Positions 5,927 through 53,504 of a DNA stretch of 64,000 nucleotides are shown here, piece after piece. Each line of letters opens with the position of its first letter. The stretch's first letter is position 1. Made by a program: the position numbers and the translations under genes. The stretch lies in contig CP060227.1 of the NCBI GenBank assembly GCA_023898525.1, positions 645,836 through 709,835 of the forward strand, read 5' to 3'. The notes under the pieces were generated by a model that saw only the letters and a list, made by a program, of their open reading frames with translations, did not search any database and had not been told where the DNA came from. Source of the stretch: Candidatus Nomurabacteria bacterium. Lineage in GTDB: Bacteria > Patescibacteriota > Minisyncoccia > Phycocordibacterales > UBA918.

Positions 5927-7318
5927 ATGTTTGACTTAAAAGTTATAAACTCGGTCTTGGCTGAACTTGAGGAAGAAAGAGGAATTCCTAAAGAAAGAAT
6001 GATTGATGCGATCGAGCAGTCGCTCGCCACTGCCTACAAAAAGGAGTTTGGGAAGCGTGGGCAGATTATTACCGCTGACTTTGATCTGAATACTGGTGAT
6101 GTTACTTTCAATCAGGTTAAGATCGTGGTTGATGAAAGTATGTTGAAGCCAGAGGCTAGTGAAGATGAAGAGGAGGTTGAGGCTGAGGTGGAAGAAACTG
6201 AAAGTGAAGAAGATACTAGAGTTCGGTTTGATGAAGAGAAGCACATAATGATCAATACTGCACGTATGATCAAGAAAGATGTTGAGTTGGGCGAAGAGTT
6301 GGTCTTCCCTCTTGAATCCAAAGATGAGTTTGGTCGAATTGCGGCTCAGACGGCTAAGCAAGTGATTGTGCAAAAAATGCGGGAAGCAGAAAAAGAAGCT
6401 GCTTTTGCTGAGTTTGGACAGAAAGCTGGCGATATCGTGGTTGGTCAGGTGCAGCGTTTTGAGCGCGGTAATCTATACGTGGATCTTGGTCGAGTGACTG
6501 CTCTCATGCCTTACGAAGAGCAAATTCCTAAAGAAAGATTTAAGCCGGGAGAGCGGATTCGCGCTATTTTGCTGGCTGTCGAGGAAACTCCGCGGGGTAT
6601 TTTCTTGAAACTCTCACGTTCTCACCCTGATTTCCTTACTGGGCTATTTACCATTGAAGCCCCTGAGCTTCAGACTGGCGCTGTCGAGGTAAAGGCGGTT
6701 GCACGTGAAGCTGGTTCACGTTCTAAGATTGCTGTCTACGCTCAAGATCAACACATTGATCCGGTTGGTTCAATGGTTGGTCAGCGGGGTGTACGAGTAT
6801 CAACTGTGATGAGTGAGTTGGGCGGTGAGAAGATCGATATCATCGAATGGTCACCAGAACCAGCTGAGTTTATTGAGGATTCATTATCACCAGCTGAGGT
6901 TATGGAGATTCAGATTGTGTCTGAACCTGATGAAGAAGCTGGTGAACGAGGACATGCGATTGCTATCGTTTCTCCTGATCAGCAGTCTTTGGCGATTGGT
7001 CGCGGTGGACAGAATGTTCGATTGGCGGCCAAGCTGACCGGTTGGAAGATTGATATTGTGTCAGCGCAAGGTGGCGAGGAACTGGCTACAGCAGACGAGA
7101 CCGGGCACGTTGAGATTGAAGCTCCGGCTGACACTCCGGTTGGTGAGGACATTGATGTTTTGGAAAACGAAGATGCTACCACCACGAAAGAAGAGTTATC
7201 AAGCGATGATGAGCCAACTAAAGATCGTGACGTAAATCCTGATGATGAAGAGTTCGATGAGATTGACACACCGGAGGAGGCCGAAGCTGAATTAGCAGAT
7301 ACAGAAGATAAAAAATAA
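5927..7318 (+). CDS. nusA: transcription termination/antitermination factor NusA
   Basis: N-terminal domain MFDLKVINSVLAELEEERGIPKERMIDAIEQSLATAYKK, S1 and tandem KH regions (GQRGVRVSTV..., IGRGGQNVRLAAKLTGWKIDI); acidic insert and acidic C-terminal tail. Confidence 0.9.
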   Translation: MFDLKVINSVLAELEEERGIPKERMIDAIEQSLATAYKKEFGKRGQIITADFDLNTGDVTFNQVKIVVDESMLKPEASEDEEEVEAEVEETESEEDTRVRFDEEKHIMINTARMIKKDVELGEELVFPLESKDEFGRIAAQTAKQVIVQKMREAEKEAAFAEFGQKAGDIVVGQVQRFERGNLYVDLGRVTALMPYEEQIPKERFKPGERIRAILLAVEETPRGIFLKLSRSHPDFLTGLFTIEAPELQTGAVEVKAVAREAGSRSKIAVYAQDQHIDPVGSMVGQRGVRVSTVMSELGGEKIDIIEWSPEPAEFIEDSLSPAEVMEIQIVSEPDEEAGERGHAIAIVSPDQQSLAIGRGGQNVRLAAKLTGWKIDIVSAQGGEELATADETGHVEIEAPADTPVGEDIDVLENEDATTTKEELSSDDEPTKDRDVNPDDEEFDEIDTPEEAEAELADTEDKK

Positions 7319-20689: not shown

Positions 20690-21246
20690 ATTCAAAGAAT
20701 ATACCCCACCTTTCAAGGTGGGGCTATTTCGATACAATAGTAGGTAATGTCACCAATTATAAAAAAGTCACACAGTGCTAGTGAACTAGTCTACCACTTT
20801 GTTTTCCCTGTGAAATACAGAAGAAAGATATTTACCGAAGAAAACGAACCAACCCTGAAGGAGTTAGCTTTGGAATTAGAAAAACGTTACGAACTCCACT
20901 TTTTAGAGATAGGTATAGATAAAGATCATGTTCACTTTCTTATCCAAGCAATTCCAAGCTATGCTCCTTCGTATATTGCCAATACTGTTAAAGGAAACAT
21001 TACTAAACGTTTTTTCTTGGCTCATCCAGAGGTAAAGATCTTTCTCTGGGGTGGTAACCTTTGGACTGATGGCTATTACGTTAATACTGTCGGTAACGCT
21101 AATATGTCTATTGTTAAAAACTACGTACAGAATCAAGGTTTACCTGAATACAAACAATTACACCACCAAACTCTCTCGTTGTTTTAACTTAAAACTCTCT
21201 TCATGTGCCACTGATACCCCGTGTCTTCAGGCCGGGGTAGTTCATT
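20690..21246 (+). mobile_element. IS200/IS605-family insertion sequence, copy A (557 bp, identical to 27229-27785)
   Basis: 557-bp exact repeat with subterminal hairpins (ccccacctttcaaggtgggg at the left end; accccgtgtcttcaggccggggt at the right end) enclosing a Y1 transposase. Confidence 0.8.
20747..21187 (+). CDS. tnpA: IS200/IS605 family transposase TnpA (HUH Y1 transposase)
   Basis: 146 aa; HUH motif DHVHFLIQ and catalytic Tyr region TDGYYVNTVGN; 100% identical to 27286-27726. Confidence 0.85.
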   Translation: MSPIIKKSHSASELVYHFVFPVKYRRKIFTEENEPTLKELALELEKRYELHFLEIGIDKDHVHFLIQAIPSYAPSYIANTVKGNITKRFFLAHPEVKIFLWGGNLWTDGYYVNTVGNANMSIVKNYVQNQGLPEYKQLHHQTLSLF

Positions 21247-21299: not shown

Positions 21300-21860
21300 T
21301 TACGATTAAGTCCTCCCTGACAAGGGAGGACTTAATCGCTTAATACATAATACGTATGTCATATCACAAACGTACCATTAGAACATTATCACACTGTTTC
21401 TACGATCTGATATATCACATCGTCTGGACACCTAAATACCGAGGTAAGGTACTGGATAAACCAAAAGTAAAACAAGAAGTCAGTCGCACCATAGGTCAAA
21501 TATGCAAATGGAAACAGTGGGAAATAATAGAGTTAAACATCCAAGATGATCATATCCATCTTATACTTTTAACTTCACCACGTTACTCCATATCGTATGT
21601 GATGCAAATAATCAAAGGAAAATCATCAGCTTGGATGAAGAAGAAAATCAAAAACACCGATAAACTCTATGATCGAGGTTCACTCTGGGCCAGAGGTTAT
21701 TTTGTATCAAGTATTGGTCTAGATGAACACCTGATACGTCGCTACGTACGTCATCAGTACGATAAGAATCAACTAGAACAACCATCGTTGTTTAATCTCT
21801 TTAAGTGATGCTGGCATCGCCAGCTATTATGAAGCCACTGGACCTTAGTCCGGTGGTTTG
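21300..21860 (+). mobile_element. second, divergent IS200/IS605-family element
   Basis: Left hairpin ttaagtcctccc-tgacaa-gggaggacttaa (21310-21339), right-end hairpins (gctggcatcgccagc, ccactggaccttagtccggtgg) flanking a distinct TnpA; boundaries approximate. Confidence 0.6.
21356..21808 (+). CDS. tnpA: IS200/IS605 family transposase TnpA (second, divergent paralog)
   Basis: YDLIYHIVWTPKYR..., HUH motif DDHIHLIL, Tyr region WARGYFVSSIG. Confidence 0.8.
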   Translation: MSYHKRTIRTLSHCFYDLIYHIVWTPKYRGKVLDKPKVKQEVSRTIGQICKWKQWEIIELNIQDDHIHLILLTSPRYSISYVMQIIKGKSSAWMKKKIKNTDKLYDRGSLWARGYFVSSIGLDEHLIRRYVRHQYDKNQLEQPSLFNLFK

Positions 21861-22580: not shown

Positions 22581-22735
22581 GCGGGTGAGAAGAATCGGTC
22601 ACCTTCGCATCAATATTTTGTTCGACCAAGGGTCTCCAAAATATTGTGCTACGCGACCCCGTCGCTTCATACCGAAGCAAAAAGTGTTTTGCTTCAGGCT
22701 TCGCATGAAGCTCTTTTCGATTCTTCTCACCCGCA
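22581..22735. repeat. tRNA-Gly(TCC) 3'-end-associated structured element, copy 1
   Basis: Termini are a direct 17-nt copy (gcgggtgagaagaatcg, identical to 30607-30623 inside tRNA-Gly-TCC) and an inverted copy (cgattcttctcacccgca) of the tRNA 3' end; ~120-bp core shared with 43461-43608, with compensatory changes in three stems. Confidence 0.7.
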
Positions 22736-22786
22736 CAAATGGCCGGCCGAAACGCGAAAGCGTTTCGGCCGGCCATTTGTGCGGGC
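22730..22786. other. perfect GC-rich inverted repeat (26-bp arms)
   Basis: cccgcacaaatggccggccgaaacgc-gaaag-gcgtttcggccggccatttgtgcggg, starting inside the inverted tRNA-end fragment; lies just 3' of the minus-strand CYTH gene. Confidence 0.6.
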
Positions 22787-22849
22787 TATTCAACGATGTT
22801 CGAACTTTTTTAATGAAAATGACCACCCCAAATTGAGGTGGCCAAGGAA

Positions 22850-29149: not shown

Positions 29150-30614
29150 ATGAAATACATCCTTTATTGTCGAAAATCACAAGAGTCAGAGGATAGACAA
29201 GTGCAGTCACTTGAGGCGCAAGAGCGTGAACTGAATGACTTTGCTAAACGTCATAGTTTGGACATTGTTGGTGTGTATCATGAGAGTCGGTCTGCTAAGA
29301 CGGTCGGTCGTCCAGTATTCAATGAGGTGATTAAGAAAATACAATCAGGCAAGGCTGATGGTTTGCTTTGTTGGAAACTAGACCGCTTAGCGCGTAATTT
29401 CATAGATGGTGGGCTTGTCATTGACCTATTGCAGCACTCAGTCATTAAAAGTATTCAAACCCCTGCTAAAGAATATCTACCAACTGACCCTGTATATCTG
29501 ATGGTGTTTGAGCTTGGCGTGGCTAATCAATTTTCTCGCGACCTGTCTGAAAACGTAAAGCGTGGCAATCGTGAGAAAATTCGCAATGGTGGCTGGCCTG
29601 GATTAGCACCTTTTGGTTATCTAAACGATAAGGCAGAGAAAACGCTTTATGTTGACCCCGACCGTGGGCCATACGTACAGCAGATGTATGAACTCTACGC
29701 CACTGGTTTGTATAGTCTTAAAGAGCTGTCCAATGAGCTTTATGAGCGAGGATTACGCACCAAGCAAGGCAACAAAGTCCATTGCGGTACCATCAGACAT
29801 ATTTTGCGTAACCCAATGTATCACGGCGTGATTCGCTACCGTGGCAGCTATTACCCAGCTAACTTTACTAGCATTACCACCAAAGACCTTGTACGACAAA
29901 AGCATGAACGTCATGGACGGTAGTGCAAAACCGCGGAAGCAAAAGCACCTCTTTCCCTTAACTGGATTGTTTACCTGTGGTGTCTGCGGATATGCCGTGA
30001 CCGCAGAGAAACAAAAAGGTTACACGTACTACCACTGCACTAACGGCAAGGGAATTTGTGACCAAAAGAAACTATTCATTCGTGAGGAAAAACTTGATGA
30101 GCAACTGGCACCAATCTTTGATGATGTTGCATTTGACGAGGAACTAATTGAAATGATGTATCAGGCGGCACTTGAGCAAATGGAACATGACGACCAGTTC
30201 AACACCGCAGCTATTGAGAAACTAGAAAAGGAATTGGCCGCAATCAAACTAAAAGATAATCGCTTACTTGATGCTTTCTTAGCTGAAAATATTGAAAAGG
30301 ATATTTACGATGCAAAACAGGCAGAAATAAAGCATGAACGGATTGCACTAGAGAAACAATTAGCTGGAATGCGCCAAAATCACCAAAACCCCTACGCAAC
30401 TATCGAACGGGCAAAAGAGTTGTTTTTGTTTAGTAATAGAGCCAAATCTGAGTATGCGAATGCCGTTCCTGAGCGAAAACAAGAAATCGCTTATGAGTTA
30501 CTATCGAACGCTTTACTGAAAGACCGAAAAATGGCTCAACCACAACTTAAAAGCCCTTACGATATGCTCGCAAGGACTCCTAAGAATGCTGATTTTGCAA
30601 TTATGTGCGGGTGA
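29150..30614 (+). pseudogene. large serine recombinase with apparent frameshift near 29860-29900; 3' end overlaps tRNA-Gly
   Basis: 29150-29923 encodes the resolvase catalytic domain (YCRKSQESEDRQVQSLEAQ...LDRLARN) and recombinase domain; the zinc-ribbon/coiled-coil part (HLFPLTGLFTCGVCGY..., LFDKV-like TLYDKSMNVMDGSAKPRK) is in a different frame (29841-30614). The TGA stop at 30612-30614 lies inside the tRNA-Gly 3' end. Confidence 0.6.
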
Positions 30615-30676
30615 GAAGAATCGAACTCCCGACTACTGCTTGGAAGGCAGTCGTTTTACCACTAAACTACACCCGC
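30606..30676 (-). tRNA. tRNA-Gly (anticodon TCC)
   Basis: Reverse complement GCGGGTG-TA-GTTT-AGTGGTA-AAAC-G-ACTGC-CTTCCAA-GCAGT-AGTC-GGGAG-TTCGATT-CTTCT-CACCCGC-A folds as a 71-nt cloverleaf with U33 and anticodon UCC; no encoded CCA. Confidence 0.8.
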
Positions 30677-42160: not shown

Positions 42161-42455
42161 GCTTAATATTTAGAAATAATTGTTACATATATAAAGGACG
42201 TTATTTAAAGCCATATATTGTTTTGTCCTTTATAAAAGACATTGTCCGTTATCCACCTATACACTGTCTTTTCCACAGAAATCGTTGTTATTTATTTGTT
42301 GTCTCGTCAGCAAATACATTTCCACTATTGCGTACAATTGTTGCTTTATTTTCTCTAAAAAATAGTTTATTGTATCAGTAAAGGTCCCCCCCCGATGACA
42401 AGAACCCCTGGGTTCTTCCGCAAGGATAGTCGGGGGGGTCATTGTTTTTATATAT

Positions 42456-43196
42456 TTAATAAAAATACTTTTCTCCGTTTCTAAAAATATCAAACTCACT
42501 CTTAACATTGTGCTTAATCTCGTTGTATGGACGTAATTCATTATCAGTCCATTTCTTTTTCATGGCCCAACAACAATAATCTGCTATTTGGCAATTAACA
42601 TCTGACTTAGTCGAATGAAAATACATGTAGGGAACTAAACCAAAATGTGATTTTATATATTGCTTGATAGACTTAGTGACAAATTCTCTTTTTTTATTAG
42701 GTAACGCTTGATCTAATACTACCACGACCTTTTTTATACCTAAAGATGCTCGAATTTTTAAATATCGGTGACAGACATACTTCAATAAAGTTTCACATAA
42801 TTGTTTATAAAATTTTTCGTGAACCTGTTCAGTTTTAATCTTTAAAAATCCAGTTTTACTACTTTCGGCCATAACTTCTTCATATAAAGTAAAATTGGCT
42901 TTTCTTTTCTCTGCTATAACACTATCTATTTCATAGTCTGGAAGATCTTTAATTTTTTCGTAAAACTTGTTGCGTACCACTTGTGCATCAACAGTGGCGT
43001 GAAAATATTCAATATTATAACCTTCACAAAGAAGTTCATAACGTGCAGAAAGAGGTAAGTCTCGTCTATTTAAAGGATGAATTGTACTAGCTGCGGTCAA
43101 TATAAAAAACTTACTTCCTTTGTTTGAAAAAGTAAAATCACCTGATTCATCAATAAATATATAAAGTATATTATCTTTTTTCTCTTGTTCTGCCAT
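42456..43196 (-). CDS. DUF3800-domain protein
   Basis: N-terminal NILYIFIDESGDF, the DUF3800 hallmark; start set to MAEQEKK (43196). Confidence 0.55.
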   Translation of the reverse strand: MAEQEKKDNILYIFIDESGDFTFSNKGSKFFILTAASTIHPLNRRDLPLSARYELLCEGYNIEYFHATVDAQVVRNKFYEKIKDLPDYEIDSVIAEKRKANFTLYEEVMAESSKTGFLKIKTEQVHEKFYKQLCETLLKYVCHRYLKIRASLGIKKVVVVLDQALPNKKREFVTKSIKQYIKSHFGLVPYMYFHSTKSDVNCQIADYCCWAMKKKWTDNELRPYNEIKHNVKSEFDIFRNGEKYFY

Positions 43197-43460
43197 AAAG
43201 ATTAAAACATTATAGCAGTTTAGTAGCACGCCCCTTAGAACGAAACTTATACAGGGAGAATCGTCCCGGAATAGCGGCTATTTTGTTTCGTTTCACTCAC
43301 AAAATAGACTCGCTTTCCTGGACGGCTTCTCCTCGTTTTGTTCGCTAAGAAAGCTCACAAAACATCGTCCGAAGCTTCGATTCTCCACGTAAAGCATGAA
43401 AATTTTGCTCTGGCCGTACGAACAAAAATGGCGCCAATTGTATCGATGTTTTTATAGAAA

Positions 43461-43608
43461 GAGGGAGAATCGGTCACCTTCGCATCAATATTTTGTTCGT
43501 TCTGCGAACTCCAAAATATTGTGCTACGCGACCTCGTCGTTCCGTTCTGATTCTTCGTACCTCAGAATCAGGCTTCGCACGGAACTCTTTTCGATTCTCC
43601 CTGGCCGC
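43461..43608. repeat. tRNA-Gly(GCC) 3'-end-associated structured element, copy 2
   Basis: Termini agggagaatcg (direct) and cgattctccctggccgc (inverted) match the adjacent tRNA-Gly-GCC 3' end; conserved core with covarying stems relative to 22581-22735. Confidence 0.7.
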
Positions 43609-43620
43609 TACCAACGGCAA

Positions 43621-43650
43621 AGGCCCAGAAAGTATCCACTTTCTGGGCCT
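43621..43650 (-). terminator. hairpin terminator immediately 3' of tRNA-Gly(GCC)
   Basis: aggcccagaaagt-atcc-actttctgggcct. Confidence 0.55.
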
Positions 43651-43659
43651 GCCGATTGG

Positions 43660-43730
43660 TGCGGCCAGGGAGAATCGAACTCCCGACTAATCCTTGGCAA
43701 GGACTCATTATACCACTTAACCATGGCCGC
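43660..43730 (-). tRNA. tRNA-Gly (anticodon GCC)
   Basis: Reverse complement GCGGCCA-TG-GTTA-AGTGGTA-TAAT-G-AGTCC-TTGCCAA-GGATT-AGTC-GGGAG-TTCGATT-CTCCC-TGGCCGC-A; anticodon GCC. Confidence 0.85.
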
Positions 43731-43739
43731 ATTTTATAT

Positions 43740-44420
43740 TTATTTTTGTAGGTCTTTTGAAGCTAACTCAAGCCAATGCATAAGCTTTTTCTTCAAAAGC
43801 GTACTGCCGATTATAGTATTACCAACGCCAAAATGCAACGCCTTTTTACTACCACCGTTAATAAATTGGTTTTTGTAAAATTGACTGACTGATAACTTAA
43901 TCTTTCTACTCCAATGTTTCATCGCTTTTACCTCATCCATATCAGGGTAGAGAAGTAACCAAAATCTAAACGATGATTTTTCTACTCCCAAAAACTCCGT
44001 AGCGAATTTTATAAAAATACTATGCAGTTCAGTTTGGCCAGTGGTAAGGCGGATAAGGTTCTTGTGTTTCATATCACCCTCACACCTATAGAGCATTAGG
44101 CCAGAGACAAACAACGGGGAATTAAGGTAATGCTTATACTCAGTCTCTGCCAAACGCAAAATCTCCTTATATTGAGCCGTTCTTTCGGCATTTCGTGCTT
44201 TGTTTACCAGCTTTATTCTTCCTACATTATCTTTATACGCTCTATCTAGATTAGTCTTGGCTATACGTTTAGAAAACCCTTCATCTTTAAGCCAATTTGA
44301 GACCGTGCCACGCGAAACATCACAGATCTTAGCAATTTCGGTGTAAGTAAAACCACGTTTTCTAAAAGCTATAGCTTGTTCATATGCTTCTTTTTTATAA
44401 GTTACGCGTGAATTTACCAT
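43740..44420 (-). CDS. hypothetical protein with N-terminal helix-turn-helix
   Basis: GFTYTEIAKICDVSRGTVSNWLKDEG resembles a sigma-70 region-4/Sin-type HTH; the rest unassigned. Confidence 0.45.
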   Translation of the reverse strand: MVNSRVTYKKEAYEQAIAFRKRGFTYTEIAKICDVSRGTVSNWLKDEGFSKRIAKTNLDRAYKDNVGRIKLVNKARNAERTAQYKEILRLAETEYKHYLNSPLFVSGLMLYRCEGDMKHKNLIRLTTGQTELHSIFIKFATEFLGVEKSSFRFWLLLYPDMDEVKAMKHWSRKIKLSVSQFYKNQFINGGSKKALHFGVGNTIIGSTLLKKKLMHWLELASKDLQK

Positions 44421-44487: not shown

Positions 44488-44522
44488 AAAAAACCTCCCT
44501 ACACGAGTTTTCGTGAGGGAGG
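44488..44522 (-). terminator. intrinsic terminator after the 313-aa gene
   Basis: aaaaacctccctcacga-gttt-tcgtgagggaggtt. Confidence 0.6.
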
Positions 44523-44530
44523 TTGTAATA

Positions 44531-45472
44531 TTAAGAAAGATATAATTCCATAAATCGAATTAAGAGCTTTCTTTTTACATCCAAAACATCAGGCACCTTA
44601 TCGTAAAGTTCTTTCACCACCAGCCTATCCTTAGTAATTTCAGCTTCACGCAATACTAACTCAATAACCTTATCTTGCCAGATTTGTTGAGATTTTGTTC
44701 TCTTAGGTGATTCCTGATACTTTTTAAGAGCACTATCCAATGAAAGACATTCAGGAGCATTTCTTTGAGCATCTTCGTCAGCTAACTCAATCAGCCTATC
44801 ATTCCATATTTTATTGCCAACTCCTCCGCCATAGTACCTTTGTGTTTTTTTAGCCGCTTCTTCAATAGAAGTGCATAGCGGAGCTTGTATGCGCGCATCC
44901 TGTTCATAGAGTTGATTTATATTAAGATACCATACGTTAAGTATCTCAGCGGGCGGCTCGGCACTTCCAAGGCGTAAGTAACCCATACTCCAATCCGAAA
45001 GGTATTTAAGTAGAGCTTGCCTTATTTCTGGATATGACTTATAACCACTTGCTTCTTTTCTTACAAGATCTATAGCCATCTGCTTGAAGTAATCTGAGAC
45101 GTCTTTTTTTATACTCTTTAACCTATAGTACAAAATATAAGCTTCAATTGATTTGTCACACACATAATTCAATGGAAGTTCCAATAAACGCATTAAGGCT
45201 TTTTTACCAAGTTCTCCGTGTTCAATACCCATCCAAACTAATTCACGGGTATAAGAGAAAGGTATCTGTGGCAATACTCCGTCCACTTTCTGTGTACATA
45301 ATGTCTCCGCACGCTTAAACCAAACCGAAACAATACTACTGCCACGCGGAGAAATTCTTATTTCATTTATCACTTCCTTTATATCCTTACAAGCTTTAGC
45401 CTTGATTGATATTCTTACCAACAGTAACACTTCATGTAACGTAGCAATATAATTCTTAATATCATCAAACAT
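44531..45472 (-). CDS. hypothetical protein with internal tandem repeat
   Basis: 313 aa; repeated segment ...KIWNDRLIELADEDAQRNAPECLSLDSALKKYQ / ...QIWQDKVIELVLREAE. Confidence 0.45.
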   Translation of the reverse strand: MFDDIKNYIATLHEVLLLVRISIKAKACKDIKEVINEIRISPRGSSIVSVWFKRAETLCTQKVDGVLPQIPFSYTRELVWMGIEHGELGKKALMRLLELPLNYVCDKSIEAYILYYRLKSIKKDVSDYFKQMAIDLVRKEASGYKSYPEIRQALLKYLSDWSMGYLRLGSAEPPAEILNVWYLNINQLYEQDARIQAPLCTSIEEAAKKTQRYYGGGVGNKIWNDRLIELADEDAQRNAPECLSLDSALKKYQESPKRTKSQQIWQDKVIELVLREAEITKDRLVVKELYDKVPDVLDVKRKLLIRFMELYLS

Positions 45473-45880
45473 TTTAGTCTCCTTATTTTTAGAGAAATTT
45501 CACATTAACCACACAGCCATTTTCCGCAATTCTAATATCTAGTATTTTTACATATGACCGTTCTCTTATGGGTTTTATAATCATAAACGTATCATTCTTT
45601 GTTACTCTAATAGAATCGTTTATACCATAAGATCTGAATAGACGGGTGATGGTAACTGTTTTATTTTCATGACATCACGTAATCATCACTTGACTTATTT
45701 TTTCACCTATAAAGTTATAACCAGTATAAACACTACCTCCCAACCTCACTTCTTTAGTTTCACCCAAAGCCATAACAGGAAAGGTGAGCGCGAGTACAAA
45801 AAGAAATAACAGAAATTTAAGTTTCATTTTAGATCTCCTTCTTTTGTTAAAAACTCCAACATTTAAAGAAAATTGGAATT

Positions 45881-46159
45881 TTAGATTTTAGAATAGGCTA
45901 CTGTTAATACTAAAATGCACAACATTATCATCGCCATGACTAATCTTATTAGGAACCCATATTTACTCTGTTCAGCATCTTTTTCCTTCAGTATATCTTT
46001 CTCGCCAGACAATGCCGCATCAATTCTCTCGAAATAAATATCGATCGCTCTGGAAATAAGTCCTGAAAGCACAAAAGCTAGAACAAATAGACAGTATTTT
46101 ATAATATAAGCATATTCGGACATTTTTATCTCCTTTATTATCAATGAACCAGTCAACAA
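45881..46159 (-). CDS. small membrane protein
   Basis: 92 aa with two hydrophobic helices. Confidence 0.35.
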   Translation of the reverse strand: MLTGSLIIKEIKMSEYAYIIKYCLFVLAFVLSGLISRAIDIYFERIDAALSGEKDILKEKDAEQSKYGFLIRLVMAMIMLCILVLTVAYSKI

Positions 46160-46328
46160 ACTTCATGTATTGCTGACTTGGCAGTATTAGACCACGAAAT
46201 AGTGTTTTTGCGGCAAGTGTGCGACAAAATTTTATCCAATAAAAACCTAAATTAACGTTATATTTGGTATTGTGTATATTATGTCGGTTTATATCGACAA
46301 TAATTTGTATCAGTGCTATGCTTTCTCT

Positions 46329-47120
46329 ATGGAAAAAGAGAGATTAATAAAGACTATTCATAAAGCTGGACTGTCTGAAAAGGCGGCGGCTGTTTATGTG
46401 ACCCTACTCACCGAGGATGGCGCTTTTCCTTCTCATATAGCCAAACAAACCAAGATCAAAAGGAGTACCGTCTACGACATCTTACTAGAGCTTAGTATCA
46501 AAGGTTTGGTTAGTGAACTTAAAAAACGAAACAAAAGCTTTTATGTAGTAGAAAACCCCAAAAGACTTATCCGCCTAGGAGAAAAGAAGATAATTAACGC
46601 CAAAGAAGACCAGCAAATACTGCAGGATATCTTTCCGGAAATTGAAGGGCTTTATTCCGGAGTTACCAATCGACCAAAGGTTTCGTACTTTGAAGGAGTT
46701 GAGGGGGTAATGTCTATATACGGAGACCACTTAGCGACCAAAACAAAGTACGAGATGCTTGGGTTTGTAAATGTGGCTGAGCTAATGGAGTTTTTACCTC
46801 TAAAAGATTATCGGGAATACGTAAAAGCAAAAGAAAAAATCGGTATCACCACCAGAGGTATTATACCCGACACTAAAGAAGACCGTTCCTACGAAAAAAC
46901 CGTCTATTTAACGGCCAAGAAAAAGATTATTCCAACCGTACGATATATACCAAAAGCGGACTTCAATTGGAAAGCCGACCTTACCATCTATGACAAAAAC
47001 AAAGTCTCAGTGGTCACTTTTGATAAAGAAAGAATTACGGGCATCATTATAGAAAACGAGACAATTTACGGAATGATGAAAATGATCTTTGAACTGGCTT
47101 GGAAGGGAGCGGGGAAGTAG
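46329..47120 (+). CDS. TrmB-family transcriptional regulator
   Basis: Start at MEKERLIK (46329); HTH LSEKAAAVYVTLLTEDGAFPSHIAKQTKIKRSTVYDILLELSIKGLV plus TrmB-like C-terminal domain. Confidence 0.6.
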   Translation: MEKERLIKTIHKAGLSEKAAAVYVTLLTEDGAFPSHIAKQTKIKRSTVYDILLELSIKGLVSELKKRNKSFYVVENPKRLIRLGEKKIINAKEDQQILQDIFPEIEGLYSGVTNRPKVSYFEGVEGVMSIYGDHLATKTKYEMLGFVNVAELMEFLPLKDYREYVKAKEKIGITTRGIIPDTKEDRSYEKTVYLTAKKKIIPTVRYIPKADFNWKADLTIYDKNKVSVVTFDKERITGIIIENETIYGMMKMIFELAWKGAGK

Positions 47121-47256
47121 TTGGTTTATTTTCTTTATAAAAGACGAAAATCGAGTTTGTATTACATAAAAAATAACCGAGGAACGACCTTTTCCTGTCG
47201 CTACTCGCTCCTCTTTAAGGTCGCACCTCCGTTATTTTTTAACCACCCCTCACAAA

Positions 47257-48012
47257 CTACATAGAATCCCACAAAAGATCATAAACAAGCTTATGAAAAT
47301 CAGCTAATTCCTTGGATTCCATTACTATCGCCATTGATTCTTTCCATGAGGCAATTAGGACTTTGTTGTTGTAAACATTGATTTCCGGGCTAAAAGTCAT
47401 TTTTTCTTCCGGTAAGAACTTAGTAGTGCGCATTTCCTCGCTGTCTTTACTAGCGCGGTCAAAAGAAGCTTCATTTTGGGGAAGGATGGCTCTAATATGA
47501 ATATTCGCCTCAGCTCGGCGTTTGTAGTAATCGGGGAAGAAATTGGGGAGACCTTTGTGCATTTCCTCCACGTTGGCATAGGCTCGTATTAGTCCATCAG
47601 CTTGCAGAGAGTCTTCATAGGCCTCACGCATGCCTTTTTCACCCTCATAGAAACGGACTTTTGGCTTGTTGACCGAATGGAGATTTTGGATTGAGATCAA
47701 TTTTGGCATTATTTTACTGACTTTCTCTTTCTGAAGGTCAATTTTTTTGCTAAATTCACGTTTTTCTCGCTCCAGATAATCAATAAGCTTATCCGGAGAT
47801 AGGGCATAGTAGTAGGTTTTACCGGCTTTTTTGATCTTAGAAACCACCCCTTTATGCATTAGAGTCTCCAAAATATCATAAACCGTCGTTCGATTGACGT
47901 CGGTCTCTTTGGCTATCAGTGAAGCAGTAGCTTGATCGGACTTAATTATAGCTAAATATATCTCTACTTCTTTTTCAGAAAAACCTAATTCTTCTAATAT
48001 TTCTTTTATCAT
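47257..48012 (-). CDS. TrmB-family transcriptional regulator
   Basis: LGFSEKEVEIYLAIIKSDQATASLIAKETDVNRTTVYDILETLMHKGVV HTH; domain order as in 17250-18011. Confidence 0.75.
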   Translation of the reverse strand: MIKEILEELGFSEKEVEIYLAIIKSDQATASLIAKETDVNRTTVYDILETLMHKGVVSKIKKAGKTYYYALSPDKLIDYLEREKREFSKKIDLQKEKVSKIMPKLISIQNLHSVNKPKVRFYEGEKGMREAYEDSLQADGLIRAYANVEEMHKGLPNFFPDYYKRRAEANIHIRAILPQNEASFDRASKDSEEMRTTKFLPEEKMTFSPEINVYNNKVLIASWKESMAIVMESKELADFHKLVYDLLWDSM

Positions 48013-48195
48013 TACCTCATCTTAGCAGATTGTTGTGGATTTGTCACCGACAGTTATTTATTGATATTTAAGGAGTAAATATACAGTATTACCATATAAA
48101 TTTATATATACTCGACATTACTTAGTATTAAGTAATAAAATCATAATTAGTCAATAAGTTCTTTGACTAATTCTTACATCTAAAAGGAGACTGGC

Positions 48196-48480
48196 ATGAA
48201 TAATAAAGTATCTTCTTTTCCTTGGCCTTTAATGGTTTTGCTATTAATAACGGTTGGATTAGCGTTTTTATCAGATTATTACGACAACAACACCGAGCCT
48301 AGGAAAAGTTGTATTCCTAAAGAAACAAGAGTAAATATAACCTACTTCCCATGTACTGGCGAAAAACTCTTCGACAAATTAGAAGAGTTGGGTATTTCTA
48401 ACGTATCCTGTGTAAATTGCACAGCAAGGGGATGTTACGTGACTTTGAGCAAGGAGAAGAAAGATGATCAAGAAATATAA
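48196..48480 (+). CDS. small secreted Cys-containing protein
   Basis: Signal-anchor then six Cys; first gene of a three-gene small-protein operon. Confidence 0.4.
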   Translation: MNNKVSSFPWPLMVLLLITVGLAFLSDYYDNNTEPRKSCIPKETRVNITYFPCTGEKLFDKLEELGISNVSCVNCTARGCYVTLSKEKKDDQEI

Positions 48481-48754
48481 CTGGGTACTAAGTAAGGACA
48501 TAGAAGCATATCTTTTATTCGTGCAATTCTGCGTATTGATGACATGTCTATACTATGCCCCTCCAAAACCTATAGGGCTTATTCCTACAATAATCTATAT
48601 TTTAGGAGTAAACGCCACAGGATCATACGTTATGGCCGTGTTATTTTGGTTAGCCAACTGGAGAGAAAGGTTTATACCTCTAGTTATCTTTAGTGTTTCA
48701 CTCACCATACTCTTTGTTTTATTGTTATTTATCCAAGGAGGTTATCATGCGTAG
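48464..48754 (+). CDS. small membrane protein
   Basis: 96 aa with three hydrophobic helices; overlaps its neighbours by a few nt (operon). Confidence 0.4.
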   Translation: MIKKYNWVLSKDIEAYLLFVQFCVLMTCLYYAPPKPIGLIPTIIYILGVNATGSYVMAVLFWLANWRERFIPLVIFSVSLTILFVLLLFIQGGYHA

Positions 48755-49076
48755 TGAGGACTATTGGGAAGAAGAACAAAAAATAGACAGGATCTACAAA
48801 GTCTGCATATGGATATGGTGTATATTGCCATTTGTAATAGCGGTGTGTTTTAACTTTCTACCAGATAAGACTGTTGGGAAACCGACTTACTTTTTAGTCA
48901 CCGTATTGCTTATTGTGGCGATGCATACCTATTTCTTTGCCACAGTATCTCTCAAGGTGTATGTGTTTGATGTGCAAAGTAGCTCGTTAAAATGTCGCTT
49001 TATTGTACTCAATTGTATTAGTGTCTTGGGAACAGTTCTACTTTCTCTAGTATTGTTGTTGCTAAACTGGTTGTAA
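48747..49076 (+). CDS. small membrane protein
   Basis: Start at MRSEDYW, preceded by the Shine-Dalgarno aaggagg (48735-48741); three TM helices. Confidence 0.45.
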   Translation: MRSEDYWEEEQKIDRIYKVCIWIWCILPFVIAVCFNFLPDKTVGKPTYFLVTVLLIVAMHTYFFATVSLKVYVFDVQSSSLKCRFIVLNCISVLGTVLLSLVLLLLNWL

Positions 49077-49140
49077 TCAAAACCCAAGTTTGACCTTATA
49101 GTCAGACTTGGGTTTTATTTTGCCTCATATAGACTCTTGG

Positions 49141-49413
49141 TTAATCTTTCTCACCCATAACAAATTGACAACCATTTGGTCCGGCCGTGGTCGAATGCGG
49201 GGCATTGGCTGGAATATTTGCTCGATCTCCGGCTTTAAGTTCTTTTGTTTCACCGTTTATCGTCACTTCCAGCATACCTTCGGTTACAAAAAGCGCCACG
49301 TTATACGAATGAGTATGTGTTTCATGGGTAGCACCTGAAGCTTCACTTTCCTCGTAAATAGTTATGAAACCTTCTTTTTCTAGGGTTTGTATACAGCGCT
49401 CGGAGAGTTCCAT
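49141..49413 (-). CDS. cupin domain protein
   Basis: 90 aa; THETHTHSYNVALFVTEGMLEVTINGE...AGDRANIPANAPH, the two cupin motifs. Confidence 0.6.
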   Translation of the reverse strand: MELSERCIQTLEKEGFITIYEESEASGATHETHTHSYNVALFVTEGMLEVTINGETKELKAGDRANIPANAPHSTTAGPNGCQFVMGEKD

Positions 49414-49835
49414 GCTTTGATTCTACCACAAATAGCAAAGATTCTGTGTTTCACTTATAAAATAAACGTCTCAACGACTTTTTTGTTTAGTTTTAGTTAA
49501 AATACTGCTTTTCTACCTACCCCTATCGTGAGCGCTTGGGTAAAAAATTAAAGTTTCATAGGTGAGAAGAGGGTGAGGAACGGTTTATCTAAAAAAATAC
49601 AGAATATTAAGTCAACATTCAAAATATTGACCGGCTCCAGGAGCAGTTATATATTATAAATATGAACAAGAGCTCTACTAAAAAAACAAAAAAAATAGTT
49701 GATTCCATAGAAAAAAAATATGGTGTTGATTTGCAATACAAAACAGACAAAGAACTTCACGATCACCTAAAGAAAAGTGGTGTTCCGTCACTTTCTCGTC
49801 TTCTTAAAATAGTTCATCAGTAATAAACTTATTCC

Positions 49836-50372
49836 ATGGAGACTAACTTTATAGTCGATAATAAGTTAAGAAAACGCATAGAAGATTCGGTTGAATATAT
49901 TTTGTTTCTATACATAACTACCGAAAATCACAAAAGTAACACCTACAAATCAGAAACTAACCGAGTAATAGTTTTATATTGTGTTGCCATAATGGAAGCG
50001 TTGATGTTTCTAATATACGAAGAACAAGAGAAAAGGATACAAAAGTTGGAATATAAAGAAAGTATTATCGTACCTAAAAAGTATAATCATAAAGATTATA
50101 AAAATGGTGAAGTAGTAATATCGGTACGGTGTAGTAAAGAAAAAACTGAACCAGAAATCGGTTTTGTGGAACTATTAGATTTTCTCAAGGACTGTAAAGT
50201 ACTTAAAGAAGAAACTGTGACTAGAATTAAGAATATTAACCAGCAGAGAAATACGTTTCATCTTAGAAAGAATAACTTACCCGATTGTAGCAAAGAAGAC
50301 GTTGAAGAAGCTCTCTCACTTCTTTTTTTAACGATAGAACACACCCCACGGTTTATAAGAAAAGGTAACTGA
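49836..50372 (+). CDS. hypothetical protein
   Basis: 178-aa ORF, no motif; a 53-aa Lys-rich ORF (49662-49823) lies just upstream. Confidence 0.45.
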   Translation: METNFIVDNKLRKRIEDSVEYILFLYITTENHKSNTYKSETNRVIVLYCVAIMEALMFLIYEEQEKRIQKLEYKESIIVPKKYNHKDYKNGEVVISVRCSKEKTEPEIGFVELLDFLKDCKVLKEETVTRIKNINQQRNTFHLRKNNLPDCSKEDVEEALSLLFLTIEHTPRFIRKGN

Positions 50373-51050
50373 CTACACTTTTCTTAATTTCAAATTCAAG
50401 CGGCTGGAATACTCGCCATTTTTAGCATCATATTTAAGACAAAGTTCTTCAGGTATCATTGGTTTTGAAACTTCAACCACTTCAAAACCAACACTTCTAA
50501 ATATTCTTAAATATTCAGTCTCCGATCGGTGTACAGGATTTATCTTTATACCCGTATCGCCAATTTCGTCTTGATAACGTTTGTTATCAACACTTTCTAA
50601 AGAAAACTGTTTACAAATTTTGTCTGGATTAGGTACTGAAACAATTAAGAAACCATCAGTTTTGGTTATTTTATAAAGACGTTTCACAGTTGATTCCAAA
50701 TCTTCGATAAACTGAAGTGAAAGTTTTGCAAAAATAACATCGTATACTCCCAACTCATATGGAACAGAGTCATTGCCATCCCAAACCACAAACTTAACTT
50801 CCGGATTTTTAATTCTTGCCATATCTATCATGGGCGCTACGTCTGTTCCTATAACACTGTCTGCTTTTTCAGTTAGTAGTGAAGTAAATTCTCCTGTCCC
50901 ACAACCAAAATCCAGCATTGATCCAACATCGGCTGGCAATAGTTCCACAAGATCAGGAAAATTGACCTCGTACTCATACCAAGCCCAATCTCTATCAACG
51001 GCTTTTTCTGCGTACTCTGCAATAGTTTTGTTATCTAGCCATTCATTCAT
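50373..51050 (-). CDS. class I SAM-dependent methyltransferase
   Basis: Motif I MLDFGCGTGEFTSLL, post-I acidic residue (GTDVAP); start at MNEWLDNK (51050). Confidence 0.75.
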   Translation of the reverse strand: MNEWLDNKTIAEYAEKAVDRDWAWYEYEVNFPDLVELLPADVGSMLDFGCGTGEFTSLLTEKADSVIGTDVAPMIDMARIKNPEVKFVVWDGNDSVPYELGVYDVIFAKLSLQFIEDLESTVKRLYKITKTDGFLIVSVPNPDKICKQFSLESVDNKRYQDEIGDTGIKINPVHRSETEYLRIFRSVGFEVVEVSKPMIPEELCLKYDAKNGEYSSRLNLKLRKV

Positions 51051-51364
51051 GGGTTTATGGTAGCATGCAATCTTTTTGTTTGATATAAATTTCACTATAA
51101 AAAGAATCTTGCCACCAGGACTCGGCGGCAATTCTAAGTAAAATCTATAGTTTGAAATGCCATTTTCAAATTACACCACATAATTCATATACTGTACGTA
51201 TGTTGCAGGGGAAACTAGTTGATATAATACAAACACAAATAGCCTGCAGTAGTTGAAAATTACAGGCTGTTTGTAAATTTATTCAACGAGTGAATACTTC
51301 GAGTATACATCAAGTAAAAATTTGGTCAACGAGAGGTATTCACACATAAAACTTTGTAATAAAT

Positions 51365-51571
51365 ATGCAAACAAGAATACGAGGAAATAGAGATGGATTA
51401 AATAGACGAAACGAAAGTTACAATTTCAAAGGAAGGAATTATAGTAGATCTAAAATGGTAAAAAGGGTAGAGAGAGGACTTCATCCTGAAAATATGGTTG
51501 TAAAAATAAATAATCGTAAGTACGTTAAAGATAAACCAGATTCTTCAAAAAGGGATAATGTTAATCGTTAA
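51365..51571 (+). CDS. small basic hypothetical protein
   Basis: 68 aa, Arg/Lys/Asn-rich; no motif. Confidence 0.3.
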   Translation: MQTRIRGNRDGLNRRNESYNFKGRNYSRSKMVKRVERGLHPENMVVKINNRKYVKDKPDSSKRDNVNR

Positions 51572-51806
51572 GTAAAAACTTCCTTTTCGTATAATCAGGA
51601 ATTATTTGTGGTCACGAATCACTAAGTATATTTGTTCGTCTACGACTCCAAATCTACTAAGTGTTCTCGACCCGCCAGGACTCGCTCCTTACAGGAGCAG
51701 TACCCCAATTGGCTGGATTGGTTCGCTCCACTCCCAATCCAGCTCAATCGGGCTTCGAGTCGTGCTACGGCTTTTTCTTCCACTATCGTTTCAGAAAAAC
51801 CCTGCA

Positions 51807-51880
51807 CCTGGCGGGTGCACAGAAAATGTTAAAGACCAGCGTTTTAGCTGGTCTTTAACATTTTCTGTGCACCCGCCAGG
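51807..51880. repeat. perfect 34-bp-arm inverted repeat whose right arm is the tRNA-Arg 3' end plus 3' trailer
   Basis: cctggcgggtgcacagaaaatgttaaagaccagc-gtttta-gctggtctttaacattttctgtgcacccgccagg; direct copy of the tRNA 3' end (cccgccaggactcg) again at 51671-51684. Confidence 0.8.
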
Positions 51881-51939
51881 ACTCGAACCCAGAACGACTG
51901 ATCCGAAGTCAGTTGTGATATCCATTTCACCACGGGTGC
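51868..51939 (-). tRNA. tRNA-Arg (anticodon TCG)
   Basis: Reverse complement GCACCCG-TG-GTGA-AATGGATA-TCAC-A-ACTGA-CTTCGGA-TCAGT-CGTT-CTGGG-TTCGAGT-CCTGG-CGGGTGC-A; anticodon UCG. Confidence 0.8.
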
Positions 51940-52028
51940 ATCTATTTATTTGCTTCCGCTATCTTTCAGTGTCTAACATCATACGGTAAATATAGGAAAA
52001 AGCAACGATTTTCTGTTACAATGACCAC

Positions 52029-53504
52029 ATGATCAATCCTCAAGATATACCATTATTTGTACGAAGAGTTGGAGACGAGCTAGAAAAAGCTGGTTTTGAG
52101 GCTTATTTGGTAGGTGGTTGCGTACGCGACCTACTTTTGGGTAAAAAGCCAAAAGACTGGGACTTCACCACCAACGCTCACCCAGACCAAATTCAAGCTA
52201 TTTTTCCAGACAGTTTTTGCAATAATGACTATGGTACGGTCGGAGTGAAAAACAGTGATGAAGAAGCTGAAGCTAGTCTACAAGTAGTCGAAGTTACCCC
52301 GTACCGCAGCGAAGGGGAATACAGTGACAAAAGACGTCCAGACAGCGTTACTTTTGGTGTTTCTTTGGAAGAAGACCTAGCTAGACGAGATTTTACTGTC
52401 AACGCTATCGCTTACCGCATAAAAGACCAAAAAACCGTTGATTTATATGACGGAGTTGAAGATTTGAAAGCCAAACGCCTAAAGGCAGTCGGTGACCCAG
52501 ACAAACGTTTTTCAGAGGATGCTCTTCGTATGATGCGCGCGGTCAGGCTAGCGGCTGAGCTTGATTTTGTTATAGAAGGGGAAACTCTTGCTGGTGTTAC
52601 TAAAAACGCTGCATTACTCAAAGAAATAGCGATTGAAAGAATCACCACAGAGTTTGTGAGAATCATTGATTCAAACAACCCAATGCAAGGGATCGTCTTC
52701 CTAGAAAAGCTTAACTTACTTGAATATATCATTCCTGAACTACGAGAGGGGATTGGCTGTGAGCAGGGCGGTATTCACGCCTATGACGTCTTTGAGCACT
52801 TACTACGCACTATGCAAGCAGCGGCTGACAAGGGTTATTCCACCACCATGCGTATCGCCGCCTTACTACACGATGTAGGTAAGCCAGCCACTAGACGAAC
52901 TGGCGGCAAGAACAAAATGTATACTTTCTTTGGCCACGAAGTGGTAGGAGCGAGAATGACAAGAAAAATCCTAGACCGCCTTAAATATCCACGCGAAGAG
53001 TCACAAATTATCGAAAAATTAGTACGTTGGCACATGTTTTTTGCTGATCCGGACCAGATCACACTATCAGCAGTGCGTCGCACTATTGTCCGAATCGGAG
53101 AGGATCAGATTCAAAACCTCCTTAATTTAAGAGTTTGTGACCGTATTGGTACCGGTAGACCAAAAGAGCAACCATTTAGATTCCGTAAATACAAAGCCAT
53201 GGTAGACGAAGCGCTTCGTGACCCGATATCAGTCAAAATGCTGAAGATAAATGGCAACCGCATCATGGAAATAACCGCTGAAAAACCAGGGAAGAAGCTA
53301 GGTTATGTCCTCCATGCTCTTTTGGAAGAAGTGTTAAACGATCCTAGTAAAAACACCGGAGAATACCTAGAAACCAAGGTTTTAGAGCTCTATAAGCTAC
53401 CTGAGGAGGAATTAAAGGCGTTAGCCGACGCTGGCAAAGAAAAACAAGCCGAGGAAGAAGCTGAGGCTCTAAAGGAGATAGCGAGGGAACATAAAGTGGG
53501 GTAA
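52029..53504 (+). CDS. cca: CCA-adding tRNA nucleotidyltransferase (class II, with HD domain and C-terminal extension)
   Basis: Head motif GGCVRDLLLGKKPKDWDFTT, RRDFTVNA, HD region (LLHDVGKP); 491 aa. Confidence 0.85.
   Translation: MINPQDIPLFVRRVGDELEKAGFEAYLVGGCVRDLLLGKKPKDWDFTTNAHPDQIQAIFPDSFCNNDYGTVGVKNSDEEAEASLQVVEVTPYRSEGEYSDKRRPDSVTFGVSLEEDLARRDFTVNAIAYRIKDQKTVDLYDGVEDLKAKRLKAVGDPDKRFSEDALRMMRAVRLAAELDFVIEGETLAGVTKNAALLKEIAIERITTEFVRIIDSNNPMQGIVFLEKLNLLEYIIPELREGIGCEQGGIHAYDVFEHLLRTMQAAADKGYSTTMRIAALLHDVGKPATRRTGGKNKMYTFFGHEVVGARMTRKILDRLKYPREESQIIEKLVRWHMFFADPDQITLSAVRRTIVRIGEDQIQNLLNLRVCDRIGTGRPKEQPFRFRKYKAMVDEALRDPISVKMLKINGNRIMEITAEKPGKKLGYVLHALLEEVLNDPSKNTGEYLETKVLELYKLPEEELKALADAGKEKQAEEEAEALKEIAREHKVG

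Follow-up and report, generated by a model that had tools for sequence, protein, structure and literature searches.

The window analysed here, a stretch of 64,000 nucleotides from Candidatus Nomurabacteria bacterium (contig CP060227.1), contains a tRNA-Arg(TCG) gene that is followed on its 3' side by an inverted and then by a direct copy of its own 3' end (Table 1). The inverted repeat comprises 34 nt per arm with 100% complementarity and forms the longest perfect hairpin within the 64-kb window, where block shuffles yield at most 9-12 bp. The direct repeat (ACCCGCCAGGACTCG) is exact over 15 nt (51670-51684 and 51871-51885, spacing 201 nt), the copy lying downstream in the sense of the tRNA. 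This order of tRNA, inverted 3'-end copy, intervening stretch and direct copy had been correctly seen in an earlier reading made from the sequence only, whose coordinates for the perfect 34-bp repeat with its 6-nt loop were reproduced; the direct copy, given there as 14 nt, is present but measures 15 nt. No credible ORF was found between the repeats, as had also been noted, and the 10-bp hairpin gctggattgg/ccaatccagc pointed out in that reading is helix P3 of the element described below. However, the ~180-190 nt between the repeats had been regarded as a spacer with a hairpin, and they turn out to be a conserved, covarying four-helix element that is found after at least 34 kinds of tRNA.

Table 1. 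Positions of tRNA genes, repeats, helices and modules in the window
Feature	Position	Strand	Evidence or remark
tRNA-Arg(TCG), CCA not encoded	51867/8-51939	-	ARAGORN; Rfam tRNA 59.9 bits
Segment X of the tRNA-Arg gene (T-loop to discriminator)	51868-51887	-	
Palindrome arm 1: last 13-14 nt of tRNA-Arg plus 20-21-nt trailer	51847-51880		tRNA part 51868-51880; trailer 51847-51867
Trailer	51847-51867		also the 5' half of a terminator-like stem
Palindrome loop, 6 nt	51841-51846		
Palindrome arm 2	51807-51840		
Arm 2, inner part	51820-51840		complementary to trailer and terminator stem
X' in arm 2	51807-51819		reverse complement of the acceptor and T-stem 3' strands of tRNA-Arg; 5' strand of closing helix P1a
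P0 hairpin	51763-51806	-	separates the acceptor/T-stem portion of X' from its T-loop portion
Type-B module core	51664-51768	-	covariance model R1, 104.4 bits, E ~1e-32; covariation; fold z-score -8.1
P1b, 5' strand	51756-51761	-	
P2	51745-51752 with 51704-51711	-	
P3 hairpin	51712-51743	-	loop GAG..CGAA
Junction GUACUG	51698-51703	-	
P4 hairpin	51685-51697	-	loop UGUAA
X copy	51670-51684	-	repeats tRNA-Arg positions ~56-70 directly, from the T-loop through the T-stem 3' strand into most of the acceptor 3' strand; supplies the 3' side of closing helices P1b and P1a
tRNA-Gly(GCC)	43657-43730		followed by an imperfect long palindrome and two modules
First tRNA-Gly(GCC) module, type A	~43461-43608	tRNA strand	z = -6.3
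Second tRNA-Gly(GCC) module, another core type	~43252-43386	tRNA strand	z = -5.6
tRNA-Gly(TCC)	30605-30676		no module adjoining; 8 kb from the matching module at 22581-22735
Type-A module	22581-22735	tRNA strand	17-20-nt arms equal to the tRNA-Gly(TCC) 3' end

The palindrome and the direct repeat at tRNA-Arg are parts of one copy of this element, here called a type-B module, and provide the two strands of its closing stem. When read along the tRNA strand, the Arg module adopts a multi-branch fold (z = -8.1 versus shuffles) that is closed by pairing between X' and X: P1a pairs GCACCCGCCAGG with CCUGGCGGGU, and P1b pairs GACUCG with CGAGUC. P1 reproduces the continuous 3' strand of the tRNA acceptor/T-stem stack. 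That a chimeric or collapsed read created the palindrome, a caveat raised in the earlier reading, has a probability close to zero: chimeric library molecules can yield perfect palindromes, but this locus was recovered in both an independent Logan assembly and an NCBI MAG, and dozens of independent assemblies contain equivalent long hairpins that differ in sequence.

Three further modules, all on the tRNA strand and of types other than the Arg module, are found in the window; none was found at its tRNA-Pro. All four window modules (4/4) share a hairpin whose stem covaries and whose loop is GAG..CGAA. Two of them, the one at 22581-22735 and the first of the Gly(GCC) pair, have a near-identical core with compensatory changes (type A). 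In the Gly(TCC) module, X' contains AGAAG, the complement of the tRNA 3' strand, where the tRNA's own T-stem 5' strand is GGGAG. The sequence-only reading had described the Arg stretch as resembling a "Gly-module core" (ggcttcgag, gtgctacgg). Short motifs are indeed in common, but their order differs, and the Arg module does not share a core with the Gly modules: it is of type B, whereas those at tRNA-Gly are of type A and of another type. The single grammar proposed there for three tRNAs applies to Arg(TCG) and Gly(GCC), but the Gly(TCC) gene lies 8 kb from its module. A DUF3800 gene adjoins the Gly(GCC) module array and has its own weak DUF3800-IX-like RNA motif at 42386-42443.

Type-B modules constitute a widespread family of ~105-nt structured non-coding elements located 3' of tRNA genes in Patescibacteria/CPR. 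A search of metagenomes with a 22-nt core motif identified at least 120 matching loci (designated below by L numbers); among the matches listed, a tRNA on the same strand ends 75-350 nt upstream of the module in 88 of the 105 loci that have enough upstream sequence. At least 34 anticodons are represented. Type-B modules after tRNA-Arg(TCG) and tRNA-Gly(GCC) are also found in L133, a locus that was retrieved through a CCA-adding-enzyme homologue and not through the motif. The type-A core pattern has matches in six CPR genomes (Parcubacteria, Paceibacteria, Saccharibacteria, Nomurabacteria), and in five of the six the module lies directly 3' of a tRNA (Gly, Met, Val) with the same grammar. The suspicion that the pattern might be limited to the tRNAs of the window and lack conservation is thus contradicted by its wide occurrence in CPR genomes.

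The arrangement of modules along contigs varies. Some contigs (L067, L068, L046) have a module after most of their tRNAs, while L012 and L043 contain four to five modules each and no tRNA. A type-B module is followed in tandem by a type-A module in L003. Tandem arrays have X between their units, and the closing stem of some tandem modules is not derived from a tRNA (L124). Three scans of viral contigs for the module yielded no true match, and a viral origin was set aside.

The type-B module is organized in the order X', core (P2-P3, P4) and X, with conserved junctions AAG, AG, UACUG and UGUAA. Its 5' part consists of a complement of the acceptor/T-stem, which is not always present, an optional P0 hairpin and a complement of the T-loop, and is followed by AAG. 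P0-type hairpins like that of the window Arg module also occur in L099, and shorter ones in L003, L015, L070 and L092. P2 pairs CCCGAUUG with CAAUUGGG, including a conserved G·U, and encloses AG and P3; UACUG then leads to P4 (NNNC-UGUAA-GNNN), the 3' strand of which overlaps T54-C56 of X. The consensus fold pairs the T-loop bases of X with X' and P4. The junctions of the type-B core show conservation of riboswitch- or ribozyme-like grade.

This fold is borne out by covariation. Among 96 distinct sequences, 93.9% of the cells are paired, versus 78.5% in shuffles, with 445 double-change cells. In an alignment that incorporates motif-independent matches, compensatory changes are found at 31/31 pairs, including P2, and pairing falls to ~50% when the partners are slid by one column. 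The covariance model R1 also finds members that lack the search motif; fitting to the model biases the R1-based alignment in favour of the structure, but an alignment made with MAFFT leads to the same conclusion. When the helices are read on the tRNA-sense strand, they contain 124 G·U pairs versus 34 A·C pairs. Thus, the fold is selected on that strand, either as RNA or as sense single-stranded DNA (ssDNA), and the G·U bias fits these two equally well.

Several other readings of the structure were rejected. A hammerhead-like interpretation of the P3 loop (GAG..CGAA) fails because base pairs occupy the CUGA positions and no ribozyme of Rfam matches, and the strand order of the same loop does not fit a K-turn. 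A group I intron or an intron in the T-loop was likewise discarded, in the absence of a covariance-model match and because known Patescibacteria tRNA introns are located elsewhere in the tRNA, at position 35/36 of the anticodon loop (PMC13011429). The possibility that X' is a direct copy of the T-stem 5' strand is discounted since X' perfectly complements the 3' strand even opposite G·U pairs.

In the type-B family, X and X' always match the sequence of the local tRNA. Among the matches listed, and with the tRNA 3' end taken as 0, the direct repeat most commonly starts at -21 (G53/T54) and most commonly stops at 0 or +1, and the inverted copy mostly extends from -21 to -10, that is, over the T-loop and part of the T-stem. 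A subset that includes the window Arg module has an inverted copy that runs on through the acceptor strand and the trailer. An acceptor complement in X' is clear in ~30% of modules by an ungapped measure, most members having only the T-loop and a few T-stem bases; mimicry of a tRNA minihelix is therefore not universal. Opposite G·U pairs of the T-stem, too, X' is the Watson-Crick complement of the tRNA 3' strand; at the window Arg module, X' contains CCAGG, the complement of that strand, and the tRNA's own 5' strand reads CUGGG. CCA follows the X copy in 10 of 43 modules versus 4 of 43 tRNA genes. The direct and inverted copies show no positive correlation in their decay, which would have been the signature of an insertion scar.

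Comparison of orthologous loci, which were retrieved through homologues (75-84% identical) of the neighbouring CCA-adding enzyme, encoded at 52029-53504 in the window, revealed marked differences between relatives. The window has a full type-B module after tRNA-Arg(TCG) and type A plus another type after tRNA-Gly(GCC). At tRNA-Arg(TCG), L131 and L132 possess a terminator only, L134 has the palindrome and P0 only, L135 has a core with an internal deletion, and L133 has a full type-B module with a degenerate X. The tRNA-Gly(GCC) site is empty in L131, L132 and L134, is occupied by another core in L135, and carries in L133 a type-B variant with a covarying P2. Since orthologous tRNA loci may be empty, partial, decayed or occupied by another core, the turnover of modules by gain, loss and replacement is evidently rapid. 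Unrelated arms are found on cores that have 0-3 differences from one another, which would reflect either transposition with re-specified arms or gene conversion of cores within genomes.

The 3' ends of tRNAs are classic integration sites, and the repeats might accordingly be scars of an integrase island, with attL and attR left behind by a deleted island and a palindrome formed by a terminator that matches the tRNA end by chance. The region at ~44.5-51.1 kb, downstream of tRNA-Arg, is absent from relatives, and a hairpin at 51109-51131 includes 10 nt of X, both as would be expected from such an event. Yet the stretch between the repeats is a member of a conserved structured family and not a random remnant, a perfect 34-bp match to the tRNA end and trailer cannot be due to chance, and no integrase was detected in any of 85 neighbourhoods among the matches listed. 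Family-wide conservation and covariation effectively refute this explanation, which is very improbable.

Intrinsic (Rho-independent) terminators consist of a G+C-rich stem of ~5-12 bp, a short loop and a U-tract. In this lineage, tRNAs and genes end in A/T-extended, perfectly palindromic terminators of 17-23 bp, and relatives without a module have such a canonical hairpin after tRNA-Arg. The inner 20-21 bp of the window palindrome look like an ordinary terminator hairpin of this kind (inner stem GACCAGC/GCTGGTC, then TTTAACATTTTCT), and the outer 13-14 bp represent X against X'. A terminator consensus scan did not call the 34-bp hairpin; it called a 6-bp hairpin inside X' followed by GGGTTTTTCT (51819-51803). 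Across the family, 40 of 78 loci have a terminator-like hairpin and T-run that separate the tRNA from the module, so that co-transcription is not assured, and no promoter was found; a terminator-like site after X is present in only 19 of 117 modules. The hairpin made of the tRNA X, the trailer, the terminator and X' recurs with unrelated sequences, in L056 with 37 perfect base pairs and also in L031, L064 and L088. Because it recurs at other tRNAs with different sequences, the "swallowing" of the tRNA 3' end is a trait of the family.

X' thus has two alternative partners, namely the tRNA 3' end, with which it forms the outer part of the 34-bp palindrome here, and the X copy, with which it forms P1. 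The predicted fold of the full read-through RNA contains the long stem at -153.9 kcal/mol, versus ~-143 kcal/mol when the tRNA is kept folded, a difference of ~11 kcal/mol that agrees with the competition anticipated in the sequence-only reading. These values, together with the likeness of the inner 20 bp to the long palindromic terminators of the lineage and the presence of such a hairpin after tRNA-Arg in module-free relatives, would suit a cis control of tRNA 3' maturation or termination by the long stem, the rest of the module being incidental. The termination control envisaged earlier can nevertheless be upheld only for those inner 20 bp, which resemble the ordinary A/T-extended terminators of this genome. 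A cis-acting role as the whole explanation is improbable, as it leaves the covarying 105-nt core and the X copy unexplained, close relatives lack a module at the same tRNA, and modules also occur in tandem and without a nearby tRNA. A recombination-site role or an antisense function of the tRNA-Arg palindrome, as the earlier reading also suggested, is possible.

No recurrent protein family accompanies type-B modules: in Pfam searches of 85 downstream ORFs among the matches listed, the most frequent domain, NUDIX, occurs in 5/85, while recombinases, transposases, reverse transcriptases and DUF3800 proteins were found in 0/85. No recombinase was detected by a Pfam scan of the neighbours in the window. 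DUF3800 was rejected as a type-B partner, given this absence and the lack of any other DUF3800 protein in any locus by phmmer; four loci with DUF3800 homologues have neither a tRNA nor a module nearby and show only weak DUF3800-IX matches. A protein with HTH and LAGLIDADG-like parts lies beside tRNA-Gly in 14 loci but also in module-free relatives, and is taken to reflect synteny. The window contains IS200-like TnpA genes (20.7-21.8 kb); IS200/IS605 ends rely on 4-nt guide pairing and conserved hairpins, an end type unlike the locus-specific 10-21-nt arms of the modules, and these genes were dismissed as mobilisers.

Type-B modules are best described as protein-less elements, structured as single strands in the tRNA sense and most likely RNA, that are gained and lost at tRNA genes and close on a stem copied from the tRNA; we put the probability of this reading at about 0.5. 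The module would act as a single strand produced by read-through from the tRNA or from its own start. The X copy would give X' a partner, so that the folded tRNA is not unzipped, and X would provide the module with a tRNA-like end, reaching exactly to the discriminator and often continued by C or CCA, that could be recognized by RNase P, RNase Z or the CCA-adding enzyme. On short evolutionary time scales, modules would be gained, lost and exchanged at tRNA genes as non-autonomous mobile or duplicative elements anchored on the near-palindromic T-loop (TTCGAA). Their tRNA-specific X' arms would arise most simply from templated copying. One candidate route is a palindrome-perfecting template switch that proceeds outward from the terminator hairpin and is seeded by the anti-T-loop sequence of the module; in another, an enzyme encoded elsewhere would carry out site-specific recombination in the T-loop.

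In an alternative, DNA-level version, the module would be an integrative element with a folded single-stranded attachment site, in which the X/X' duplex mimics the tRNA gene from the T-loop to the 3' end. The unit [trailer/terminator hairpin - X' - core - X] would exist as a small single-stranded circle or replication intermediate, and a host tyrosine recombinase would exchange strands in X to give tRNA-hairpin-X'-core-X, repeated integration producing arrays. A single step would then account for the inverted and direct tRNA copies around the core and for X between array units, and the long hairpin would be one and the same helix as P1 in the circle. The T-loop-to-3'-end direct repeat is like the identity blocks of integrase att sites, presence and absence differ among relatives, and hairpins as perfect as these (34-37 bp) are more typical of DNA-level events than of selection on RNA. 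This version is nonetheless rather unlikely. No recombinase is linked to the modules, an att site needs neither the conserved junction nucleotides nor the conserved G·U, and the presence of one core type at more than 30 tRNAs would require both arms to be re-specified each time. In addition, no more than ~12 low-complexity nt of the tRNA-proximal trailer are alike in L133 and module-free relatives, a likeness that, if real, would place the insertion after the terminator and not in the T-loop.

The reading of the modules as single-strand-structured, tRNA-sense elements can tentatively be extended to a class of protein-less genetic elements: structured RNAs with several unrelated cores (types A, B and others) that would colonise the tRNAs of Patescibacteria by copying from the T-loop to the 3' end, this copy entering both strands of the closing stem. 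Members might be self-propagating as RNA or DNA through a new T-loop-directed mechanism, or they might be tRNA-specific minihelix RNAs that are processed, CCA-tagged and perhaps aminoacylated in the manner of the adjacent tRNA. Genomes of CPR/Patescibacteria are ~1 Mb in size and are thought to be stripped to essentials, and several contigs nevertheless have modules after most of their tRNA genes, sometimes in tandem. If selfish, the element would lack any protein gene of its own and spread by making use of the universal near-palindromic T-loop; if functional, it would represent a family of tRNA-specific structured RNAs that serve tRNA metabolism and are without counterpart in model bacteria. 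Either reading, if true, would be new biology. The family is a new, well-covarying fold, and it accounts for one class of the long palindromes and tRNA 3'-fragment calls seen in assemblies of CPR genomes.

The modules match no known RNA family in Rfam 15, at gathering or permissive thresholds, in the window or in 38 loci; the families covered included DUF3800-I to -XI, drum, skipping-rope, self-cleaving ribozymes, group I/II introns, tmRNA and RNase P. Only tRNAs reach the gathering score in the window, a search of 51100-51960 and 43200-43760 at E-values up to 10 gave nothing but spurious miRNA-type hairpin matches, and 34 related loci contain tRNAs and one unrelated group I intron only. No description of these tRNA-anchored modules was found in the literature searched in full text. 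Given these results, and since each of the closest systems fails at least one defining feature, the module family is apparently new. The orphan motifs with terminators surveyed by Weinberg et al. 2017 (DUF3800-I to -XI, drum and skipping-rope; PMC5737381) resemble the modules in being complex, highly conserved non-coding structures, partly from uncultured bacteria, with several unrelated cores apparently for one job. The modules differ in that they yield no covariance-model match to these motifs and that type B is not found near DUF3800 genes (0/85); the main text of that survey describes no tRNA-derived closing stem (PMC5737381).

Like tRNA-like structures (the tmRNA domain, viral TLS, mascRNA) and minihelices, the module has a closing stem that reuses the acceptor/T-stem 3' strand up to the discriminator, sometimes with CCA, and at the point where the tRNA body would branch off, a hairpin interrupts its 5' strand. 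A tRNA-identical acceptor helix ending at the discriminator is present in the window copy; the acceptor complement is clear in ~30% of members. In contrast to tRNA-like structures, the T-loop bases of the module are base-paired and form no T-loop, acceptor pairing is absent or weak in many members, and identity follows the adjacent tRNA.

Integrative elements at tRNA genes, including attL/attR pairs, CIME-type remnants and tandem accretion, share with the modules a T-loop-to-3'-end direct repeat that leaves the tRNA intact (at tRNA-Arg, 15 nt exact on both sides of the insert), tandem units separated by repeats, and a presence that varies between relatives. The modules have neither integrase nor cargo and consist of ~100-200 nt of conserved folded non-coding sequence; they also have an extra inverted copy, and one core type is found at more than 30 tRNAs. 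Integron attC and CTX-phage attP(+) sites would be comparable in that function would depend on an intrastrand hairpin recreating a double-stranded, target-like site with strand specificity, and a hairpin and a strand bias are present in the modules, but the modules have no linked tyrosine recombinase, their arms are copies of the host target, and they contain a large multi-helix core. In MITEs, the terminal inverted repeats are conserved from copy to copy and the target site is duplicated over a short, fixed length; in the modules, the arms vary with each copy and equal the local tRNA, and the duplicated ~21 nt coincide with the arms. Finally, quasipalindrome template-switch mutagenesis and REP/BIME sequences show similar features, namely long hairpins (perfect or perfected) next to terminators, many copies and an intergenic position, but REP elements have conserved arms and a RAYT partner, whereas the modules have locus-specific, tRNA-copied arms around a conserved core.

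One type-A module, remote from its matching tRNA gene, has arms of 17-20 nt that are identical to the 3' end of tRNA-Gly(TCC). The tRNA-Gly(TCC) gene itself (30605-30676) lies 8 kb from this module and has none beside it; in L003, one of the related loci compared, a nearly identical hairpin and module are found immediately 3' of that locus's own tRNA-Gly(TCC). In the window, a perfect palindrome of 26 bp (22730-22785) and a 'pseudo-X' (22779-22805; GTTCGAACATCGTTGAATAGCCCGCAC) come before the module. Two adjoining IS200-like (HUH Y1 TnpA-type) ORFs (20747-21187 and 21356-21808, plus strand) are located about 1 kb from the module.

Coordinates of modules and neighboring genes in the window
Feature	Position	Strand
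Type-A module with tRNA-Gly(TCC) arms, and flanking elements	22581-22805	minus
DUF3800 gene	42456-43199	minus
Tandem module pair 3' of tRNA-Gly(GCC)	43252-43608	minus
Second module of the pair (further core type)	43252-43386	minus
Type-A module of the pair	43461-43608	minus
HTH + LAGLIDADG-like protein gene	43740-44420	minus
Methyltransferase gene within the ~7-kb stretch	50373-51053	
Small DUF3892-like ORF within the ~7-kb stretch	51365-51571	

Module arrays without an upstream tRNA open with a pseudo-X, both at 22779-22805 and in five related loci (L006, L041, L055, L104 and L108). It consists of TTCGAAC and a constant 19-nt stretch whose final 6-10 nt coincide with the end of X in that array (X being the direct copy of the tRNA T-loop-to-discriminator segment); the tail of a real tRNA is 6 nt shorter. 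No tRNA-like or Rfam-like sequence was found upstream of the pseudo-X in these arrays.

Two modules follow tRNA-Gly(GCC) in tandem, and the closing sequence of both is the T-loop/T-stem of that tRNA, whose 3' end, with CCA encoded, falls within a palindrome that is imperfect and about 41 bp long. CCA is encoded in only 4 of 43 tRNA genes from the window and loci L003-L130; nevertheless, a C follows the discriminator in all 43, and the first two bases past it are mostly CA. Some hairpins of the module core (P3) carry a nested second GA...GAA loop motif (L019, L048, L066, L069, L104 and L115; for example, GAUCCUGAG...CGAAGGAGAA), which suggests a tandem G·A module that can be repeated.

The HTH + LAGLIDADG-like protein belongs to a conserved family of about 220 aa, present in the window and 14 other loci, whose members carry an HTH at the N terminus together with a LAGLIDADG-like motif such as LYxxEGD/GEGSK. 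Its gene is directly upstream of tRNA-Gly in many contigs of CPR bacteria, module-free relatives among them. About 7 kb (approximately 44500-51660) separate this gene from the tRNA-Arg module; this stretch is missing in five relatives, where less than 1.5 kb separates the genes on either side. Within the stretch, at 51109-51131, a hairpin resembling a terminator includes CGAGTCCTGG, which corresponds to 10 nt of X from tRNA-Arg; this may be an island boundary. The 60 nt directly past the tRNA-Arg module (51600-51665; GAACACTTAGTAGATTTGGA...ATATACTTAGTGATTCGTGACCAC) are also conserved in related locus L134 (about 2130-2200), a locus with no type-B core. This is a conserved block separate from the module.

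The Saccharibacteria contig L004 has a group I intron match (54 bits) at 6001-6203 on the minus strand, close to its cluster of tRNAs and modules. In the window, a sub-threshold match to the Rfam DUF3800-IX RNA (42386-42443, plus strand; 27 bits versus a gathering threshold of 36.8) lies on the strand opposite the DUF3800 gene, immediately beyond that gene's stop codon. Two related loci, L138 and L139, have the same arrangement of gene and DUF3800-IX-like match, at 30-32 bits. The match in the window is probably a divergent true member of DUF3800-IX.
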